Below, one piece after another: positions 8,789-55,096 of a stretch of 64,000 bases of DNA (positions are counted from its first letter, which is position 1; the number at the start of each line of letters is the position of its first letter). The notes beneath the pieces are model-generated. The model was given only the letters and a program-made list of their open reading frames with translations. It made no database searches and had not been told where the DNA came from. This DNA comes from Escherichia phage UP19, in the sequence record OX638288; one strand, 5' to 3'. A program made the translations under genes and the position numbers.

Positions 8789-8817
8789 GTTTACATCTCC
8801 TGTAGACGTGGTACTAT
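8789..8817 (+). promoter_or_regulatory. T4-type early promoter (GTTTAC 8789-8794, TACTAT 8812-8817) within inverted repeat CTCCTGTAG/CTACAGGAG
   Basis: 17-nt spacer; arms at 8797-8805 and 8829-8837, the latter containing the regB SD. Confidence 0.6.
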
Positions 8818-8845: not shown

Positions 8846-9304
8846 ATGTCAGAAATTAATTCAGAAGTATTCATCCGCCGCAACAAATTACGTCGACAGT
8901 TCGAAACCGAATTTCGTGAACTTAACGCGTCCATCAAAAAAGCCGCCATTAAGAGTGGTGTCCCAGCTTTCTTTATTAAGTACTCTAATCACTTGTTGGA
9001 CCGTGCTATCCAACGTGAAATTGACGAAAAATATGTTTTCTCTTTGTTCAAGAAGCTCCACAATCATGTTAAAGAAATCCATGAATTTTTAATCCAGGAG
9101 CCTCTTCCTGACGTAGAATCTGAAATTGTCCCGGGTAAAGTGTATCGACCACTGCGTCTCGAGATTACCGATAAAACCTTATGGTTAGGTATGACCGTAG
9201 ATCGTAAACATCCTGATAAAGGATATTCATTAAAATGCCGTATGGCATTTGTTAACTCTAAACGTTTAGAAGGTAAAACCAGCACTAAAGTAATCTATCT
9301 TTAA
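8846..9304 (+). CDS. regB: RegB site-specific endoribonuclease (152 aa)
   Basis: ORF track 8741..9304 trimmed; EVFIRRNKLRR...LLDRAIQREIDE...RPLRLEITD matches T4 RegB as recalled. Confidence 0.85.
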   Translation: MSEINSEVFIRRNKLRRQFETEFRELNASIKKAAIKSGVPAFFIKYSNHLLDRAIQREIDEKYVFSLFKKLHNHVKEIHEFLIQEPLPDVESEIVPGKVYRPLRLEITDKTLWLGMTVDRKHPDKGYSLKCRMAFVNSKRLEGKTSTKVIYL

Positions 9305-9316
9305 TAATGAGGTCTC

Positions 9317-9856
9317 ATGAAAAAAGTATTAGCCACTTTACTATTGACAGTTAGTATGTCTGCCTATAGCGTAGAGCCTACTTTCAGTAATGAACAACTC
9401 GATAATTTACATTATGCGTATGCTTTCGGTGAACAATACCAAAAGTCGGGAAAGTTCAAAGAAAACCCTAATCAAAAAGGATTAGGATATATAATGGCCG
9501 GATTATTATGGCAGGAATCATCTGCTGGAATTAATCAAGGTTTAAATAAAGATAAGCACCATGCTTATGGCATGTTCCAAAATTACTTGCCTACGTTAAG
9601 AAGTCGTGTTCAACAGGTAGGTTGGAAGATGTCAGACAAAGAAATAATTCGTATGGTCCAAAAACGACAGAACAGTGCCTCTTGGGCCTACATTGAACTG
9701 TCTTATTGGATTGATGTTCACAAAGGTGACCTGAGAAAAGCGATTGCTTCTTATAATGCGGGCTGGAATGTCAAAGCAGGCAGTAAATATGCTTCCGAAG
9801 TTCTAGAAAAGGCCAATTACCTAAAATCTAAAAAGATGTTTGAGGCGGTATATTAA
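9317..9856 (+). CDS. secreted protein with lytic-transglycosylase-like motifs (179 aa)
   Basis: N-terminal signal peptide; WQESS and ASYNAG motifs resemble SLT domain. Confidence 0.6.
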   Translation: MKKVLATLLLTVSMSAYSVEPTFSNEQLDNLHYAYAFGEQYQKSGKFKENPNQKGLGYIMAGLLWQESSAGINQGLNKDKHHAYGMFQNYLPTLRSRVQQVGWKMSDKEIIRMVQKRQNSASWAYIELSYWIDVHKGDLRKAIASYNAGWNVKAGSKYASEVLEKANYLKSKKMFEAVY

Positions 9857-10213
9857 ATGATTAAACAGATGACTATAGCGCTTATGTTTATTGCTCCGGG
9901 AGTATTAGCATCACAGGTTGATGATACAAATAATTCAATTGTCGAGTATGCCACCCGTACAGCAAAAGATTATTGTCATCCGAGTAATACTGAATGTGTT
10001 ATTGAATTCAGTTCAAAAATAACAGCTGCTTTTAAAGATGGACAGAACGACGTCGAGCATCGCCGAATGAAAGAGAAAACTCTTTCTAAAAGATACGAGC
10101 AACGTCTAAACGTTACTGAATGTGTTCCATCTGATAAAAAGTACAAAGAAATGTGCGCGTCTATGGTAGACAGACTCGTTGACTCTTACAACCGAGGGCT
10201 AAACTCTAAATGA
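9857..10213 (+). CDS. hypothetical secreted protein (118 aa)
   Basis: ORF track; N-terminal signal-like segment. Confidence 0.55.
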   Translation: MIKQMTIALMFIAPGVLASQVDDTNNSIVEYATRTAKDYCHPSNTECVIEFSSKITAAFKDGQNDVEHRRMKEKTLSKRYEQRLNVTECVPSDKKYKEMCASMVDRLVDSYNRGLNSK

Positions 10214-10677
10214 TTATTGATTATATTAAGGGCGATATCGTCGCCCTGTTTCTTCAAGGCAATAATGTTGCACACGGGTGTAACTGCTTTCACACAATGG
10301 GTTCAGGTGTAGCAGGTCAATTGGCTAAGGCGTATCCACCTATTCTTGCTATCGATAAAACCACTTATTTAGGTGATATAGCAAAACTTGGAACATATAC
10401 CCAAGCCACAGGTAATAATGGACAAATTTGCTATAATTTATACACCCAATACGAACCAGGCCCTAATCTTGATTACGGTGCTTTAGTAAACTGTATGATA
10501 GAATTAAACCATACTTCAAAAGGTCTTTTGTTTAAACCGAGAATTTATATTCCTCGCATTGGCTGTGGTATTGCTGGTGGTGATTGGGACAAGGTTTATC
10601 AATTGATTAATTTGTTTACTCCTGATATTAATTTAGTGGTGGTAGATTATGAAAGCTCATTATCCGCATCCGTTTGA
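10210..10677 (+). CDS. macro-domain-like protein (155 aa)
   Basis: VAHGCNCFHTMGSGVAGQL and PRIGCGIAGG resemble macro-domain ADP-ribose-binding motifs. Confidence 0.6.
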   Translation: MIIDYIKGDIVALFLQGNNVAHGCNCFHTMGSGVAGQLAKAYPPILAIDKTTYLGDIAKLGTYTQATGNNGQICYNLYTQYEPGPNLDYGALVNCMIELNHTSKGLLFKPRIYIPRIGCGIAGGDWDKVYQLINLFTPDINLVVVDYESSLSASV

Positions 10678-10861
10678 CCCTAAAAACAAAGCGGAAATTA
10701 TTCGCCGCTGGACCGAAACCCGAGTAACTAAATGCCCTATAAAAAGTCATCACAATACTGATAAATGGTATATAGGTGAATATGTTGAATATACTTTTAT
10801 AGATAAAAATAAACGTAAACAGTATGTAGAAGAATACTGCTTAAAGGTGCAATGGTTATGA
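10649..10861 (+). CDS. hypothetical protein (70 aa)
   Basis: ORF track. Confidence 0.45.
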   Translation: MKAHYPHPFDPKNKAEIIRRWTETRVTKCPIKSHHNTDKWYIGEYVEYTFIDKNKRKQYVEEYCLKVQWL

Positions 10862-11064
10862 GCCAAACCCGAATTCTTAAAACGGCTAAATGTGAAAAAT
10901 GTGAATGGCCGGTAATCGCAGCTTTATGCAACGATGAAATGGAATGTGAATTTGATTACTGGTGGTACTGTTCTAATAAAGGATGTTCTAATCATAAGGG
11001 TGAAGGTTTTCATTCCGGTTATTGCGAACATCCTAAATTTGTGCGATATGGTGAACCTAAATGA
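10852..11064 (+). CDS. Cys-rich small protein, probable zinc-binding (70 aa)
   Basis: CEKCEW...C...C...C...C pattern. Confidence 0.5.
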   Translation: MVMSQTRILKTAKCEKCEWPVIAALCNDEMECEFDYWWYCSNKGCSNHKGEGFHSGYCEHPKFVRYGEPK

Positions 11065-11246
11065 GTTTAAGTATTAGTCAGAAAAGTAGATTGTTTGAGC
11101 TTATCCATGAGCTTTTGGATGAGCATACAGAAGCAAACGCTTTTTACGATGAATATGGCCCGCTATCTCCCGAACAGCAAGAAGAATTTGCTGATCGGTT
11201 TGATGAGAAAGAAAACGAATTAATAGCTTATGTGAATACGCTTTAA
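11061..11246 (+). CDS. hypothetical acidic protein (61 aa)
   Basis: ORF track; ATGA overlap. Confidence 0.45.
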   Translation: MSLSISQKSRLFELIHELLDEHTEANAFYDEYGPLSPEQQEEFADRFDEKENELIAYVNTL

Positions 11247-11255
11247 GAAGGTAAT

Positions 11256-11828
11256 ATGGCTCAACTTTATTTTCATTATGCGGCAATGAACTCAGGTAAG
11301 ACCGCTTCATTGCTAACGGCAGCTCATAACTACAAAGAACGCGGTATGAGCGTGCTCCTTTTAAAGCCTGCGATAGACAATAGAGAATCAAGCCATACCA
11401 TTTCGTCTCGTATAGGGATTAGTCAAGAGGCTAATGCGGTGACTCCGGATATGGACCTATACGAGTTCTATCGTTGGGCTGAATCTCAAAAAGATATCCA
11501 CTGTGTGTTTGTGGATGAAGCACAATTCTTAGAACCTGCACAGATAAAACAACTGGCAAAGATAGTAGACAATTATAATGTTCCAGTTATGTGTTATGGG
11601 CTAAGAACTGATTTTCAGGGTAAACTGTTTCCTGGTTCTGCTGAATTACTCGCTACGGCAGATAAACTCGTTGAGTACAAAGGTGTGTGCCATTGCGGCC
11701 GTAAAGCTACTATGACTGCTAGGGTCCAAGATGGTGTCGCAATTAAGGACGGAGCCCAAGTTTCTATAGGTGGCAACGATTCTTACGTGTCATTGTGCAG
11801 GAAGCACTGGATAGAAATAACGAGTTGA
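11256..11828 (+). CDS. tk: thymidine kinase (190 aa)
   Basis: P-loop MNSGKTASLL; thymidine-kinase-like throughout; C-terminal zinc ribbon CHCGRKAT...LCRKH. Confidence 0.9.
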   Translation: MAQLYFHYAAMNSGKTASLLTAAHNYKERGMSVLLLKPAIDNRESSHTISSRIGISQEANAVTPDMDLYEFYRWAESQKDIHCVFVDEAQFLEPAQIKQLAKIVDNYNVPVMCYGLRTDFQGKLFPGSAELLATADKLVEYKGVCHCGRKATMTARVQDGVAIKDGAQVSIGGNDSYVSLCRKHWIEITS

Positions 11829-11835
11829 GGGTACT

Positions 11836-12114
11836 ATGGACCTAAATTCAAAGATTTTAATTCTAGCGTTCGCTGTGGCCATCTCTTATATTGTTCTTTC
11901 GCCCATCATGGATGATGCGGCTTACAAAAGAGAGATAGAAGTTGTAGCAGCGACGTATAATGCTAATAATAAAGAATGCCCTAATAAAAATGGAATGGAT
12001 TTAATTAAAGCACATTATATGCTTTCCATTACCTCGCCTATACAGAGGAATTGGGTTGAATATAATTTTAACGACGTGTTCTATTCTTATTGTCGTAAGC
12101 TTAAAAAGCTATAA
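11836..12114 (+). CDS. hypothetical membrane-anchored protein (92 aa)
   Basis: ORF track; N-terminal hydrophobic segment. Confidence 0.5.
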   Translation: MDLNSKILILAFAVAISYIVLSPIMDDAAYKREIEVVAATYNANNKECPNKNGMDLIKAHYMLSITSPIQRNWVEYNFNDVFYSYCRKLKKL

Positions 12115-40069: not shown

Positions 40070-41743
40070 ATGAAAAAGGTTGTTATTTTAGGCGCAGGTC
40101 TTGGCTCACGGTTGTATCCAATTACTAACGAAATCCCAAAGGTATTGGTTAACTACAAACAACATACGGTATTAAAACATTTGTATGATTTGTATAGTAA
40201 CCAATCAGATGAAATTATTCTGGTTATTCACAGCAAATTTAACGACCTCGTTAAAGGCTATATTAAATCCATTAACATGATTACTGGTGATAAGCCTAAA
40301 TTCACTATTCGTAACGTTGATGTTGCTAATGGTTCAGCTCATGCTATCGATTGCATTGCCGAAGATATCATTGGCCATAATGTCCTGTTTAACTGGTGTG
40401 ACATCATTCCTATCGGTCATAAAGTTGAATGGGGTAACGACTATTGTTATACCTATGGAACTGACTGTCGCTTTACATTTGAAGAACCGTACTTACGTGA
40501 AATTGGTACCGGTGGCGGTGTAGTTGGTTTGTATCAGGTAGCCAATTGGACAGGTTTCGACCGTTCTAATTATGGCGAAGACCTTGCTGATAACCTGGAT
40601 TCAATGGTCTATTTGACTGAACGTAAACTGGATTTTGTAGTTGATGTCGGTGACAAATTGAAACTTGCCAAGGCCCATGAAGATTCTGAAATTAACCGTG
40701 AATTTAATAAATTAGAGTTCACCGAGAATCTGGCTATTAAAGTACCAACTAACGAATTAGGTAAAGAAATTCAATCTAAAGAAATCAATTGGTATAATTC
40801 TATTGATTCTGAATTCGTTCCTAGCATTGTAGACTTTTCTCCAGGCGAATTCATTAAAATGGAACGTATCTTTGGTCGTACCATGGCAGATGCCTACCGG
40901 TTTATGTCCAAAGAAACTAAAGTCCTCATGGTTTATAAGGTCATTAGTGCATTACGTTCATTCGGTGGAACTATCGATAATCCGTCCGATGAGCAATGGT
41001 ATTCCGATGTTAAGAAAGAAGTGTTGGACAAGGTCCTTATTCGTAATGCTTCTATTGCCGGATTGATTGAAGGCTTTGCTCCACAGGGCATTACCCATGT
41101 TAACGATTTCAAAGTAGGCGACCCCGAAAAACTTCTCCGCCATGCACTAGAAATTCTGTCTGAACATAAAGAACCGTACCAACTTATTCATGGCGACCCG
41201 CACTACAGTAATATTATGCTGTCGGACGAAGGTGATATTAAAATCATCGACCCACGTGGTTATTTCGGTAATAGTTCTAAAGGCCCTGCGATTTATGATG
41301 AAGCTAAGGTGCTTTATTCTATCGATGGCTATGACAAATTTAACTCAGACCCTCTATGGGGTGGATTAACTCGTAACGGAACTCGTGTATTCGTTGATAT
41401 CGAAAAGGTTATGCCTTTAGACGATATTCCTATGTGCACATTTAAGCACAAGCTCTGGATTGCTGTTATTTGGATGGCGCTGGCAGGTTACTTTAAGAAT
41501 AACCCTCTGAAAGCTCTGGGTGCTTATTATAACGGTTTGTATCAACTGAGTGTGCTGCTGAAGCGGCATCCTCGTAAGCGTAAGCTTATTACTGGTGAAT
41601 TTGTCGATGAAGTTCGTGACCCTATCACGGCTCAAATTATTACTCGTTGTCCTGATAAGTGGGTTTTGCTTGACCAGGAAACTGGTGTAAAATATAAACC
41701 TACAGGTTCTACTGAGCTCCACAAACAATGGAAGAAAATTTAA
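40070..41743 (+). CDS. bifunctional nucleotidyltransferase/kinase-like protein (557 aa)
   Basis: ORF track 40040..41743 trimmed; N-terminal ILGAGLGSRLYPITNEIPKVLV; C-terminal HGDPHYSNIM and IIDPRG. Confidence 0.75.
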   Translation: MKKVVILGAGLGSRLYPITNEIPKVLVNYKQHTVLKHLYDLYSNQSDEIILVIHSKFNDLVKGYIKSINMITGDKPKFTIRNVDVANGSAHAIDCIAEDIIGHNVLFNWCDIIPIGHKVEWGNDYCYTYGTDCRFTFEEPYLREIGTGGGVVGLYQVANWTGFDRSNYGEDLADNLDSMVYLTERKLDFVVDVGDKLKLAKAHEDSEINREFNKLEFTENLAIKVPTNELGKEIQSKEINWYNSIDSEFVPSIVDFSPGEFIKMERIFGRTMADAYRFMSKETKVLMVYKVISALRSFGGTIDNPSDEQWYSDVKKEVLDKVLIRNASIAGLIEGFAPQGITHVNDFKVGDPEKLLRHALEILSEHKEPYQLIHGDPHYSNIMLSDEGDIKIIDPRGYFGNSSKGPAIYDEAKVLYSIDGYDKFNSDPLWGGLTRNGTRVFVDIEKVMPLDDIPMCTFKHKLWIAVIWMALAGYFKNNPLKALGAYYNGLYQLSVLLKRHPRKRKLITGEFVDEVRDPITAQIITRCPDKWVLLDQETGVKYKPTGSTELHKQWKKI

Positions 41744-42126
41744 TGTCGCATCGAGTAGAAAATAAGCCACATTTATGTTTTGATATCGATAACACAATCA
41801 CGATTTGGAACCATGACCGTGATTATGAGAACTTTAAACCGGACACCGAAATGGTGTCCATGATTAATAAGCTTTATGATGAAGGGTACGAGATTACATT
41901 ATTCACTGCCCGTGGCATGACTTCATGTGGCCCAGGTCGAATCTTGGTTGAAGTAGTTCCTGCATTGGTTAAGAACCTTGAAAAGATTGGATTGAAATAT
42001 CATAATCTGCTTACGCATAAGCCGAGTTATACTTTTATCATCGATGACCGAGCAATCCGTCCTGACCACTTTAAAGAAATGGTTCGTGAAGGAACTCTTG
42101 ATAGTTATAAGGCCTATCATCCATGA
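41743..42126 (+). CDS. HAD-superfamily phosphatase-like protein (127 aa)
   Basis: ORF track 41728..42126 trimmed to TAATG-overlap ATG; HAD motif I FDIDNTIT. Confidence 0.65.
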   Translation: MSHRVENKPHLCFDIDNTITIWNHDRDYENFKPDTEMVSMINKLYDEGYEITLFTARGMTSCGPGRILVEVVPALVKNLEKIGLKYHNLLTHKPSYTFIIDDRAIRPDHFKEMVREGTLDSYKAYHP

Positions 42127-42659
42127 ATCCAAAAATCATTGTTATAGACGGCCCGGATAATTCCGGGAAGTCCACTTTAATTAAAAATCTGTTATCCAAT
42201 AAGAAATACCGCCTTATTGATTTTCCTAAAAAGATTAATGGCAAGTGTATTTCATTAGGAACTGATAACGATAAGGCTTTAGTTGAAACTCTGTATAAGT
42301 TTTTAGACCCTAATTTCGTTTATATCCTTGACCGTGGTTATCCAAGTAATATTGTTTACTCAGGATTCCTTCGTGGTGAAATGGACCCTTATGTAGAACT
42401 GGAAGATTGGAAAGGGTTTAAATCCGAATTTAACGTTATCGAGGTTATTTTAACTCGCAATCCATTAGACGAAGACTTCGAAGACGACCTTATTAAATTA
42501 ACCAAAGATGAGTTCAACCTAACTATCCGGCAATACGAAACATGTTTTGAAAACGTGTTTAAAATCTTAAATCATGACGGCCATAATAATTTGCTTAATG
42601 TTGATATGGTAGAATTAAAACGTCTGAACGAATATATTGAAAATAAGGTGAATAAATGA
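42123..42659 (+). CDS. P-loop (d)NMP-kinase-like protein (178 aa)
   Basis: Walker A IVIDGPDNSGKST resembles thymidylate/deoxynucleotide kinase family. Confidence 0.65.
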   Translation: MNPKIIVIDGPDNSGKSTLIKNLLSNKKYRLIDFPKKINGKCISLGTDNDKALVETLYKFLDPNFVYILDRGYPSNIVYSGFLRGEMDPYVELEDWKGFKSEFNVIEVILTRNPLDEDFEDDLIKLTKDEFNLTIRQYETCFENVFKILNHDGHNNLLNVDMVELKRLNEYIENKVNK

Positions 42660-43354
42660 AACACATTACCGCTGTTAGTTTTGAAAATGCATTTAAACAA
42701 ATGAACGAAGAAATCCTGGAAGCTCCACAGTTTGCAGTTGATTCTCGTATCGGACGTTGTTATGAAATTGGTTCTGCTTCGGTAGAAGTACTGGATGCAA
42801 GCACCTATAAATTCACCGACCCACGTATCAATCGTATTAGTTATGAATATGCCGAATCCTTTTGGAAATTTATGATTTCTGGTGGTACTGACGCTGCCGA
42901 AGCATTTAAGGAATACCCTAATGTTGCTAAGTTCATTGATAAGCCGAAAAGTGATGTATTGCCTGCAAACTTCAACACTTTCTATGGACCTCGAATTGTG
43001 GCCCAACTCCCAGCCCTACTTAAAGAGCTTAAAGAAAAGGCTAACTCGCGAAGAGTTGTGTTCCAGATTCTCCAAGAACAAGACCAAGCCCTCCTTGATT
43101 CTGACGAATCCTTAGAATATCCTTGCACCGATTCGGTAACGTATTATATTCGTGACGGACGTTTGTATGCACACACCCATATGCGTTCACAAAACTGCGC
43201 CGTTGTTATGCAGCTGGATTTCTATCTGCAGGGTAAACTGATGGCATTTATTGCTGAACAGTGTGGTGTCGGTTTAGGTACATATTCCCACACCATGGTA
43301 AGTGCACACGTGTTTGAACGTGATTTTGACTACGTCCGAGGTTTCCTGAAATGA
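42656..43354 (+). CDS. 42: thymidylate-synthase-fold pyrimidine hydroxymethylase (gene 42 position), divergent from T4 gp42 (232 aa)
   Basis: NSRRVVFQI, EYPCTDSVTYYIRDGRLYAHTHMRSQNCA and SAHVFERDF align with T4 gp42 motifs as recalled. Confidence 0.7.
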   Translation: MKHITAVSFENAFKQMNEEILEAPQFAVDSRIGRCYEIGSASVEVLDASTYKFTDPRINRISYEYAESFWKFMISGGTDAAEAFKEYPNVAKFIDKPKSDVLPANFNTFYGPRIVAQLPALLKELKEKANSRRVVFQILQEQDQALLDSDESLEYPCTDSVTYYIRDGRLYAHTHMRSQNCAVVMQLDFYLQGKLMAFIAEQCGVGLGTYSHTMVSAHVFERDFDYVRGFLK

Positions 43355-44244
43355 GTTTGTTTATCGTTCCTATTTTCAGTATGCGTAGTTACGAAACAGG
43401 TGAATATGCCGTCCTTAAGGACGGCAATTTTCAACTCCATTTAAATCGTGCTCGTCCAGGTGATTATCTGGCTTATCCTAGAAATTCGAGCGATATCAAA
43501 GAATGCATTGAATTATTCCCAGAACTGAATTTCGTACCACTTTGGTATAAAGAAAATGCTTATGAAACCCGTAAACATTTCTGGTCTGAAAATGAGTTTG
43601 TAGTCGATTCACTAATCGAATACTATGATTGCTCAGGACTGGTGACCGATATCACCGGTTATGATGGTGCTCATACTGTACAATTCAACTTTAATATCAC
43701 AATGGACCCTGAAGTTCCTCGTTATTATATCGACGAGTTCATTGATATTGATGTGGCTTCAGTTGAACGTTCACTTTATACTACAGTCTTGAATCAATGC
43801 CAGAAAGACGTCCTGGTGTCACGAGGTGCATCCTCTGATAAGATTTTTGTAGACCAAAAGGTAATTAATCCTGCAGTAATTGAGCGTTACTCTGAAGGTC
43901 TAGCGCCTATTAAAATTGATGGTATTTTCCATCCATTCCGTATTTCGGATAAGTGTTATCAATTCGAAAGAGTTGTAGACCAAGCTGCCGCTGAAGGTGC
44001 TCGTCTTTATATCACCGACCCTAATGATTCATTTAAGCGCGAAGACTATCGTCCTGATGTAGAGATTATTAAATTCAAACCGAGTAAGGTTGAATATTAT
44101 CAAATTCTGAAATCAAGACCACATATCATTTATCATGAGAACCCAGGTTTAGTATTCCATCCTGGTCTGGCTGAATTCATTTATTTTGGTGCCAATATTC
44201 ATTCTGAATACGAAATGCCACGTTATGAGGACGTAGTATGCTAG
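43351..44244 (+). CDS. hypothetical protein in beta-glucosyltransferase position; candidate DNA-modifying transferase (297 aa)
   Basis: ORF track; positional replacement of T4 beta-gt between 42 and uvsX; no recognisable similarity to T4 beta-gt as recalled. Confidence 0.6.
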   Translation: MSLFIVPIFSMRSYETGEYAVLKDGNFQLHLNRARPGDYLAYPRNSSDIKECIELFPELNFVPLWYKENAYETRKHFWSENEFVVDSLIEYYDCSGLVTDITGYDGAHTVQFNFNITMDPEVPRYYIDEFIDIDVASVERSLYTTVLNQCQKDVLVSRGASSDKIFVDQKVINPAVIERYSEGLAPIKIDGIFHPFRISDKCYQFERVVDQAAAEGARLYITDPNDSFKREDYRPDVEIIKFKPSKVEYYQILKSRPHIIYHENPGLVFHPGLAEFIYFGANIHSEYEMPRYEDVVC

Positions 44245-53857: not shown

Positions 53858-54427
53858 ATGAACATCGAACAAAAATGTCTTTATCAAGACCGAATCAATT
53901 CTAAATTTTCAAAATCTGAACAAGCGTTATTAGAGAAATGTCTAGACGCCAAAAAAGACCCTAACTTCCATTACGACCTCGACAAACTGGTTCGCAAGCA
54001 TGTTACTTCAGCGGTTCCAGTAGAGTTGTATCGTGGGATTACCACCAGAGAACTTGAGCAATTAGAGCTCCTTTCAGTAGGGTATCAATGGTCTCCTGGT
54101 CGAGTTACTTCTTTTAGTACACAATACTCTCAGGCTCGTCAGTTCGCAGGGGCATGGGAGTATGGAACCAAAACCATTTTAAGTCTCAGGAATGCACCGT
54201 TCATTTTCGACTACTACAATCATGCTATCGACCTTGTTCTTGCAGGGAATGTGGATGAGCTTGAAATAGATGAATCTCGTATCGACCTCTATGATATGGT
54301 TGAAACTGAATGCGAGTTCATGGTCTCTAGTCTATCGCGATTTGAGATTGTTGCAATCGAAACCGTCAAAAGGGATCCATACGAAATCGAGTATAAAACA
54401 ATTCATTTAAAAATGTTAGATTTTTAG
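53858..54427 (+). CDS. ADP-ribosyltransferase, Mod-type (ModB-like by position), 189 aa
   Basis: R-S-E-type motifs LYRGIT, SFSTQYS, ECEF; paralogue of next gene; position between soc and srd as for T4 mod genes. Confidence 0.65.
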   Translation: MNIEQKCLYQDRINSKFSKSEQALLEKCLDAKKDPNFHYDLDKLVRKHVTSAVPVELYRGITTRELEQLELLSVGYQWSPGRVTSFSTQYSQARQFAGAWEYGTKTILSLRNAPFIFDYYNHAIDLVLAGNVDELEIDESRIDLYDMVETECEFMVSSLSRFEIVAIETVKRDPYEIEYKTIHLKMLDF

Positions 54428-54481: not shown

Positions 54482-55096
54482 ATGTTATATCCAAGCCATA
54501 AATTAGCAGAATTTATCAACAATGTCAAATGCGATGATTTCCGTGAGAATACCCAGATAGAAATTGATGAGGTGTATTCTGATTTAGAACAGAGCACGCT
54601 CTGGCAGTGTATGGAAAATAAACCTGATTCTATCCAGGAAACTCTGAACAAAATTATTCGTAAGAACCTGACTTCTGTAGTGCCTGATAAGCTCTATCGC
54701 GGTATATCTAAAAAGACCCTGAAGTATCTAGAGTCCACAATGTGTGTGGGTGCGGTAATTGAATTCGACCGTGTGATGAGCTTCTCTAAAGACTTCAACG
54801 TAGCAAGGAATTTCGCATCTTATAACTTCTACGGCACATTTAATATCTTTTGTATTAATGATGCGCCATTTGTGTACAATTATCAGGAAGAAATCTTTAA
54901 AATGTTATGTGCTGCGCCCCCTGAAGAGTTCCCAGGCGCATTTCCTGAATCTACACGTGTAGCAAACTTACAATTAATTAATGATGAAGATGAGATGATG
55001 TTCCCTGCGGGAACTACGCTGCGCGTAGACTCTATTGAGAGAAATCCTAAATGGAATAATTACACCATTTGGAATCTTTCCGTTCTTTCTTACTGA
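54482..55096 (+). CDS. ADP-ribosyltransferase, Mod-type (ModA-like by position), 204 aa
   Basis: LYRGIS motif; paralogue of 53858..54427. Confidence 0.65.
   Translation: MLYPSHKLAEFINNVKCDDFRENTQIEIDEVYSDLEQSTLWQCMENKPDSIQETLNKIIRKNLTSVVPDKLYRGISKKTLKYLESTMCVGAVIEFDRVMSFSKDFNVARNFASYNFYGTFNIFCINDAPFVYNYQEEIFKMLCAAPPEEFPGAFPESTRVANLQLINDEDEMMFPAGTTLRVDSIERNPKWNNYTIWNLSVLSY

Follow-up and report, generated by a model that had tools for sequence, protein, structure and literature searches.

A Gln-type stand-alone macrodomain encoded by tk.4 (adfM) of Escherichia phage UP19 and its probable role against the DNA-modifying toxin DarT2

Small macrodomains encoded by bacteriophages raise the question of which ADP-ribose conjugate they act on, and to what advantage for the phage. 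The case considered here is an open reading frame (ORF) of 155 codons plus stop, with an ATG start, at positions 10210–10677 (plus strand) of a 64 000-nucleotide stretch of Escherichia phage UP19 DNA (record OX638288), the whole of which is referred to as the window. The original prediction, made from the DNA letters, had described the product as a macro-domain-like protein in a variable regB-tk interval and as a candidate counter-defence factor, which could reverse host ADP-ribosylation of DNA or proteins or degrade ADP-ribose-derived immune signals. The ORF is present as claimed, and the two motifs quoted in support of the assignment are found in the translation exactly as written (VAHGCNCFHTMGSGVAGQL at residues 20–38 and PRIGCGIAGG at residues 115–124). 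Both the gene, known as tk.4 or adfM, and its counter-defence role are already known from a long-standing annotation and from a preprint of 2025 in which the T4 orthologue was studied; beyond confirmation, the present analysis adds little, its useful points being the Gln-type character of the active site and the double use of the name AdfM.

The tk.4 gene and its genome setting

The window is assigned to a Dhakavirus (Straboviridae, Tevenvirinae) by the sequence of the region from 9300 to 11900, in which nucleotide identity amounts to 98.5% with Escherichia phage JS10 and to 97% with JS98. The ORF lies between regB (approx. 8847–9304) and tk (11256–11828) and is part of a block of co-directional and tightly packed genes, its start codon overlapping the stop codon of vs in the tetranucleotide ATGA (10210–10213) and the downstream ORF beginning at 10649, i.e. 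29 nucleotides before the tk.4 stop. The gene order in the RefSeq entry of JS10 is regB, vs.1, vs, tk.4, tk.3, one hypothetical gene, tk.2 and tk, and that of T4 is regB, vs.1, vs, tk.4, tk.3, tk.2, tk.1 and tk, so that the vs-tk.4-tk.3 placement within the regB-tk block is common to the window, JS10 and T4. The window protein shares 96.8% of its residues with JS10 Tk.4; with T4 Tk.4, which likewise has 155 residues, the identity is 54% over 155 of 155 residues (E = 3e-64). Because sequence, length and synteny agree, the ORF is assigned as the syntenic orthologue of T4 tk.4 (adfM). The JS10 product is annotated as ‘phosphatase; Tk.4; contains A1pp phosphatase motif’, and the T4 annotation is identical.

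Between tk.3 and tk.2, the window and JS10 contain an additional ORF encoding a Cys-rich protein of 70 residues (10852–11064, plus strand). T4 has no gene at this position and carries tk.1 instead, a difference from which it follows that the regB-tk interval itself varies among T-even phages. With regard to the variable interval invoked in the original prediction, both the location and the variability of the interval are therefore borne out, but the term does not apply to tk.4 itself. A tblastn search with the window protein found homologues in 2731 phage records, as opposed to only 795 for the neighbouring vs, with hosts that include Escherichia, Klebsiella, Salmonella, Pseudomonas, Vibrio, Acinetobacter, Aeromonas and others. 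These figures indicate that tk.4 is a widely conserved accessory function rather than a peculiarity confined to one variable interval.

As to expression, a consensus scan revealed a candidate sigma-70/T4-early-like promoter (TTTACA-16-TACTAT with an upstream TG; 8790–8817, plus strand) just before the start of regB, which may drive the regB-vs.1-vs-tk.4 block. By taking into account this early-like promoter and the packing of the genes, tk.4 is probably expressed early in infection. The candidate promoter is a weak one, as the scan for promoters and terminators around tk.4 returned, on the whole, sites that were no more numerous than in shuffled sequence. Twenty nucleotides after the tk.4 start codon, a hairpin with a G+C-rich stem of 8 bp and a U-rich tail (10229–10247, plus strand; AGGGCGAT-ATC-GTCGCCCT GTTTCTTCAA) looked like an attenuator, with an RNA fold z-score of −2.0. 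Among the T-even-like phages of E. coli examined, T4 and a48 have exactly the same stem nucleotides, and the RB49-like PHB13 retains the stem with T-G changed to T-A; four other straboviruses (KMB19, KPV15, 44RR2 and Maestro) have lost it. The hairpin overlaps the codons of a conserved peptide, KGD(I/L)(V/I)AL, and constraint on the protein may explain part of its conservation.

Other features of the window were also recorded. The window contains 18 copies of a T4 middle-promoter-like pattern (MotA box TGCTTNA, a spacer of 10–14 nucleotides and TANNNT), where 5.4 are expected from shuffles; one of these copies (TGCTTTAGTAAACTGTATGATAGAAT; 10479–10504, plus strand) is found inside tk.4 and would read into tk.3. 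Between uvsX and the DNA polymerase gene 43 (40070–44241, plus strand) there is a cluster of five genes, 99.5–100% identical to JS10, which encode a hypothetical protein of 557 residues, a phosphoheptose-isomerase-like protein, a thymidylate-kinase-like protein and hypothetical proteins of 232 and 297 residues. Together, these genes might form a module for sugar nucleotides or for the hypermodification of DNA; the corresponding position of T4 is presumably occupied by beta-gt and gene 42.

Fold and active site of the window protein

The resemblance to macrodomains put forward in the original prediction is far beyond chance. With the Pfam Macro family (PF01661), for which the gathering score is 22, the window protein reaches 29.3 bits (E = 9.3e-7) over profile positions 2–117 of 118, and it matches PHROG 335 with an E-value of 7.7e-66; the matches to solved macrodomains in a single-sequence search included BT1257 (1e-8) and DarG (2e-4). 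An alignment of 51 phage and metagenome homologues (A1) was the source of both a family profile and an AlphaFold2 model. Compared with the PDB, the family profile matched BT1257 (1e-20), TARG1 (8e-18), SCO6735 (3e-17), Poa1p (7e-14) and Mycobacterium tuberculosis DarG (4e-11). Structure prediction had been proposed as a check, a non-macro fold being the outcome that would speak against the assignment, and the model that was obtained (mean pLDDT 93, pTM 0.88) has the three-layer alpha/beta/alpha macro fold with a central mixed beta-sheet. A Foldseek search of the PDB with this model placed macrodomains on top, led by TARG1, BT1257, Poa1p and DarG, with TM scores of 0.70–0.83, and also gave a set of designed serine hydrolases scoring at the level of the macrodomains. 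The two Gly-rich loops for the ADP-ribose diphosphate are present as MGSGVAG (residues 30–36) and GCGIAGG (residues 118–124), in which G33, G118 and G120 are invariant. On the basis of both the sequence matches and the predicted structure, the window protein can be confidently classified as a stand-alone macrodomain of the ALC1/TARG1/DarG/Poa1p-like class.

Sixteen positions are invariant in A1, namely H22, G23, N25, G33, A35, D49, G61, N76, Y78, T79, Q80, G84, P115, G118, G120 and W126, and the window protein and T4 Tk.4 each carry all of them. H22, G23, N25, G33 and A35 belong to the first ADP-ribose-binding loop (residues 21–36, AHGCNCFHTMGSGVAG; 10270–10317, plus strand), the motif of which is also invariant in the 80 bacterial relatives discussed below, but was part of the pattern used to retrieve them. 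Within this loop, H22 aligns with H24 of SCO6735 and H23 of Poa1p, and N25 aligns with N27 of SCO6735, with the DarG Asn and with N23 of PhiKZ gp104. P115, G118, G120 and W126 belong to the second, diphosphate-binding, Gly-rich loop (residues 115–126, PRIGCGIAGGDW; 10552–10587, plus strand), which was aligned to PRIGCGLDRLQW of TARG1 and to PRIGCGLAGG(K/T)W of BT1257/SCO6735. Here, A122 occupies the place of the catalytic Asp of TARG1 (D125).

The central beta-strand ends with NLYTQ (residues 76–80; 10435–10449, plus strand). Q80 takes the place of the catalytic Lys present in DarG (K80) and TARG1 (K84), and is equivalent to Q85 of SCO6735, according to the profile-to-PDB alignments as well as to a multiple alignment (A2) that included BT1257, TARG1, two DarG macrodomains and PhiKZ gp104; Gln is also what BT1257 and SCO6735 have at this position. 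N76, Y78 and Q80 are invariant in the 51 sequences of A1 and in the 80 bacterial ones and, with D49, lie outside the retrieval pattern used for the latter. D49 itself (10354–10356, plus strand) is a family-specific Asp, invariant in A1 and in 80 of the 80 bacterial relatives, but not conserved in BT1257, TARG1 or DarG, as seen from the multiple alignment. The loop past Q80 (YEPGPN) contains no Lys and is shorter than its SCO6735 counterpart (HGMKTGSKGAP), and K34 of SCO6735 corresponds to S32 of the window protein. These alignments place the active site of T4-type AdfM with the Gln type and not with that of DarG; neither this nor the lack of orthology with PhiKZ AdfM, discussed below, is stated in the papers searched.

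Relation to other macrodomains and distribution

With T4 Tk.4 (AdfM; NP_049723), the window protein shares the HGCNC sequence, D49, NLYTQ and the P-IG-G---W core of the second loop, which reads GCGIAGGDW in the window protein and GAGIGKGNW in T4 Tk.4. SCO6735 of Streptomyces coelicolor and BT1257 of Bacteroides (PDB 5E3B, 2FG1 and 2AFC), which represent a Gln-type subclass of the ALC1/TARG1-like macrodomains, are similar to the window protein in that Gln replaces the catalytic Lys and the first loop contains H-x-C-N. However, the identity is only about 25%; K34, K89, the second loop Lys and the extended mobile loop of SCO6735 are missing from the window protein, and the invariant D49 and Y78 are the Tk.4 family's own when set against these two proteins. 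Human TARG1 (OARD1/C6orf130; PDB 4J5R) was the top Foldseek match (TM 0.74–0.83), but its K84/D125 dyad is replaced by Q80/A122 in the window protein, which therefore lacks the Lys/Asp pair characteristic of TARG1. Yeast Poa1p (PDB 6LFQ) is 21% identical to the window protein, longer (180 residues) and provided with extra insertions.

Membership of the DarG family was considered and ruled out. The DarG proteins of M. tuberculosis and Thermus aquaticus (PDB 5M3I and 5M31) have K80 where the window protein has Q80; DarG proteins are approximately 330–350 residues long, with a C-terminal DarT-binding domain, whereas the window protein consists of the macrodomain alone in its 155 residues; and DarG is encoded beside darT, while the neighbours of the window gene are vs and tk.3. 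Of the 329 positions of the PADLOC DarG model, only positions 3–144 are matched, and with the NCBIfam DarG model, the cut-off of which is 250 bits, the score reaches only 20.6. Thus, the missing catalytic Lys, C-terminal domain and darT neighbour, along with the NCBIfam score far below cut-off, exclude the window protein from this family.

Equivalence with gp104 of phage PhiKZ was also rejected. The latter is a stand-alone phage macrodomain that counters DarTG2 and was independently named AdfM (Cell Rep 2026, PMC13309987); it takes ADP-ribose off DarT2-modified DNA in vitro, with reduced activity in the N23A variant (PMC13309987). Its sequence, translated from the construct described in the same paper (PMC13309987), is 21% identical to that of the window protein (pairwise E = 6e-4), carries the DarG-type FPTK Lys motif and has DarG proteins as its only significant sequence matches in the PDB (E = 9e-25). 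The 21% identity, the Lys-type site and the different PDB neighbours rule out that the two proteins are equivalent. From the sequence comparison, the name AdfM is seen to cover two non-orthologous lineages of phage macrodomains with one target, the Gln-type T4 Tk.4 and the Lys-type gp104, and results obtained for either of them should not be carried over to the other without testing.

Bacterial relatives were found at no fewer than 434 loci in assemblies selected as one genome per species. The best 80 of these at least 434 loci are mostly stand-alone ORFs of 146–170 residues, with Q80, N76, Y78 and D49 present in 80 of 80. A DarT2 homologue was found within 5 kb of none of these best 80 relatives (tblastn, E ≤ 1, with a single DarT2 query that could miss very divergent toxins), nor did any recurrent neighbour emerge around them, the largest neighbour cluster accounting for 8 of the 80 loci. 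That the gene is an antitoxin orphaned by capture from a DarTG operon is not supported by these 80 relatives, which are stand-alone, with no DarT2 within 5 kb and no conserved neighbour. The distribution instead suggests a resemblance to SCO6735, a stand-alone guard enzyme, rather than a recent capture from a DarTG operon.

Proposed function, rival explanations and implications

T4 devoid of both adfA and adfN was found to be still resistant to DarTG2 (PMC11825919), so that a further anti-DarTG2 factor was expected. In the HIDEN-SEQ preprint of November 2025, tk.4 was the single significant match of a T4 transposon library on DarTG2-expressing Escherichia coli, and a clean tk.4 knockout turned DarTG2-sensitive; the gene was renamed adfM, for anti-DarT factor Macrodomain, and its authors proposed, without enzymology, that AdfM removes ADP-ribose from DNA (10.1101/2025.11.20.689424). 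The T4-side evidence for DarTG2 resistance is, therefore, genetic, comes from a preprint and concerns T4 only; the literature searched contained no biochemical work on T4 Tk.4. Among the options listed in the original prediction, that of reversing ADP-ribosylation of DNA gains support from the need for the T4 orthologue against DarTG2.

[quoted passage not shown] The activity of SCO6735 on thymidine-linked ADP-ribose (T-ADPr) was independently confirmed in 2026 by using synthetic T-ADPr oligonucleotides (PMC12879935), and TARG1 too removes thymidine-linked ADP-ribose (PMC9411070, PMC12879935). Since the Gln-type SCO6735 cleaves T-ADPr, the absence of the DarG lysine from Tk.4 is no argument against DNA de-ADP-ribosylation, and the presence of Gln in place of Lys leads to the expectation of an SCO6735-like rather than a DarG-like chemistry. 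With the longer mobile loop of SCO6735 and the two lysines by which it holds DNA (K34 and K89) absent, DNA binding must be organized differently.

From the genetics of T4 tk.4 and the enzymology of SCO6735, we infer the activity and the mechanism of the window protein, which most likely shields replicating phage DNA from DarT2 by hydrolysing ADP-ribosyl-thymidine with SCO6735-like chemistry. The host toxin DarT2 modifies single-stranded TNTC motifs by linking ADP-ribose to the N3 atom of thymidine, which blocks replication. In the proposed sequence of events, the ADP-ribose moiety would be held between the two Gly-rich loops of the phage enzyme (MGSGVAG and GCGIAGG), and hydrolysis of the bond between ribose and thymine would yield free ADP-ribose and intact DNA. 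The reaction would be independent of Lys, with the invariant Q80 instead of the catalytic Lys of DarG, as in SCO6735, in which Gln positions the distal ribose and a backbone-held water beside the conserved His/Asn motif is proposed to start the reaction. The 54% identity with T4 Tk.4 leaves room for a shift in specificity. A non-enzymatic contribution to the neutralization of DarT2 is possible, by analogy with the Q85A variant of SCO6735, which blocks DarT without catalysis (PMC9411070).

That DarT2 is neutralized mainly without catalysis, through binding of the toxin or of its ADP-ribosylated DNA product in an ‘interaction-inhibition’ partly like that of DarG, is, on the whole, improbable. 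The catalytically dead SCO6735 Q85A, DarG K80A and TARG1 K84A variants all inhibit DarT in vitro, SCO6735 being the strongest (PMC9411070), and the phenotype of the T4 knockout fits binding and hydrolysis alike. However, the window protein has no counterpart of the C-terminal DarT-binding domain of DarG, and H22, N25, Q80 and both Gly-rich loops are strictly invariant across phages and bacteria of many phyla, which speaks for the conservation of an enzyme activity rather than for the fit to one toxin surface. It also seems unlikely, to a similar degree, that the protein serves mainly to remove ADP-ribose from proteins or RNA and not from DNA, be it the marks set by the phage's own transferases Alt, ModA and ModB or those of host ADP-ribosyltransferase defences aimed at RNA or protein, such as CmdT. 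Both modB (53858–54424, plus strand; 96% identical to JS10) and modA (54482–55093, plus strand; 99.5%) are encoded within the same window, and are relevant to the idea of a macrodomain acting on ADP-ribose marks made by the phage; ADP-ribosylated protein is a further substrate of SCO6735 and TARG1 (PMC9411070), and RNA-targeting ADP-ribosyltransferases are known as defences against T-even phages (PMC11618068, PMC11833690). Against such a task stand the facts that DarTG2 is the only reported condition making T4 tk.4 important and that SCO6735, the closest characterized Gln-type enzyme, is inactive on 2'-OH RNA ADP-ribosylation (PMC11833690), whereas for phosphate-linked RNA/DNA ADP-ribosylation two statements in the same paper disagree (PMC11833690). 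Assays of Tk.4 on protein- or RNA-type ADP-ribose substrates were not found in the literature searched.

Very improbable, finally, is what the legacy annotation implies, i.e. that Tk.4 is a Poa1p-like ADP-ribose-1''-phosphate phosphatase, or else a hydrolase of small molecules such as O-acetyl-ADP-ribose or cyclic ADP-ribose immune signals. A likeness to Poa1p exists, in that, of the residues targeted by the deposited Poa1p mutants (H23, S30 and F152), H23 is kept as H22 and S30 is conservatively replaced by T29, as read from the 6LFS and 6LFT mutant chains, and some phosphatase activity on small molecules is thus conceivable, but the DarTG2 phenotype of T4 would be left unexplained and there is no phage context calling for the removal of ADP-ribose-1''-phosphate.

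Hydrolysis of ADP-ribosyl-thymidine thus being the preferred explanation, it may be asked whether the Tk.4/AdfM family represents a third mechanistic variant of DNA de-ADP-ribosylases, maybe with wider or different substrates, with the bacterial copies acting as general guards against ADP-ribosylating toxins. This proposal, which is speculative and rather less likely to be true than false, builds on the Gln centre, on the absence of the DarG Lys and of both the DNA-clamping lysines and the long loop of SCO6735, and on the family's own D49 and Y78. If it were true, the enzymes might act on ADP-ribose linked to uracil or other bases of RNA or DNA, or on ModA/ModB marks, and the stand-alone bacterial copies, with no DarT partner, would be general guards against ADP-ribosylating toxins. 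Given the breadth of the Tk.4 family, its biochemistry bears on how commonly ADP-ribosylation of DNA is used and countered.
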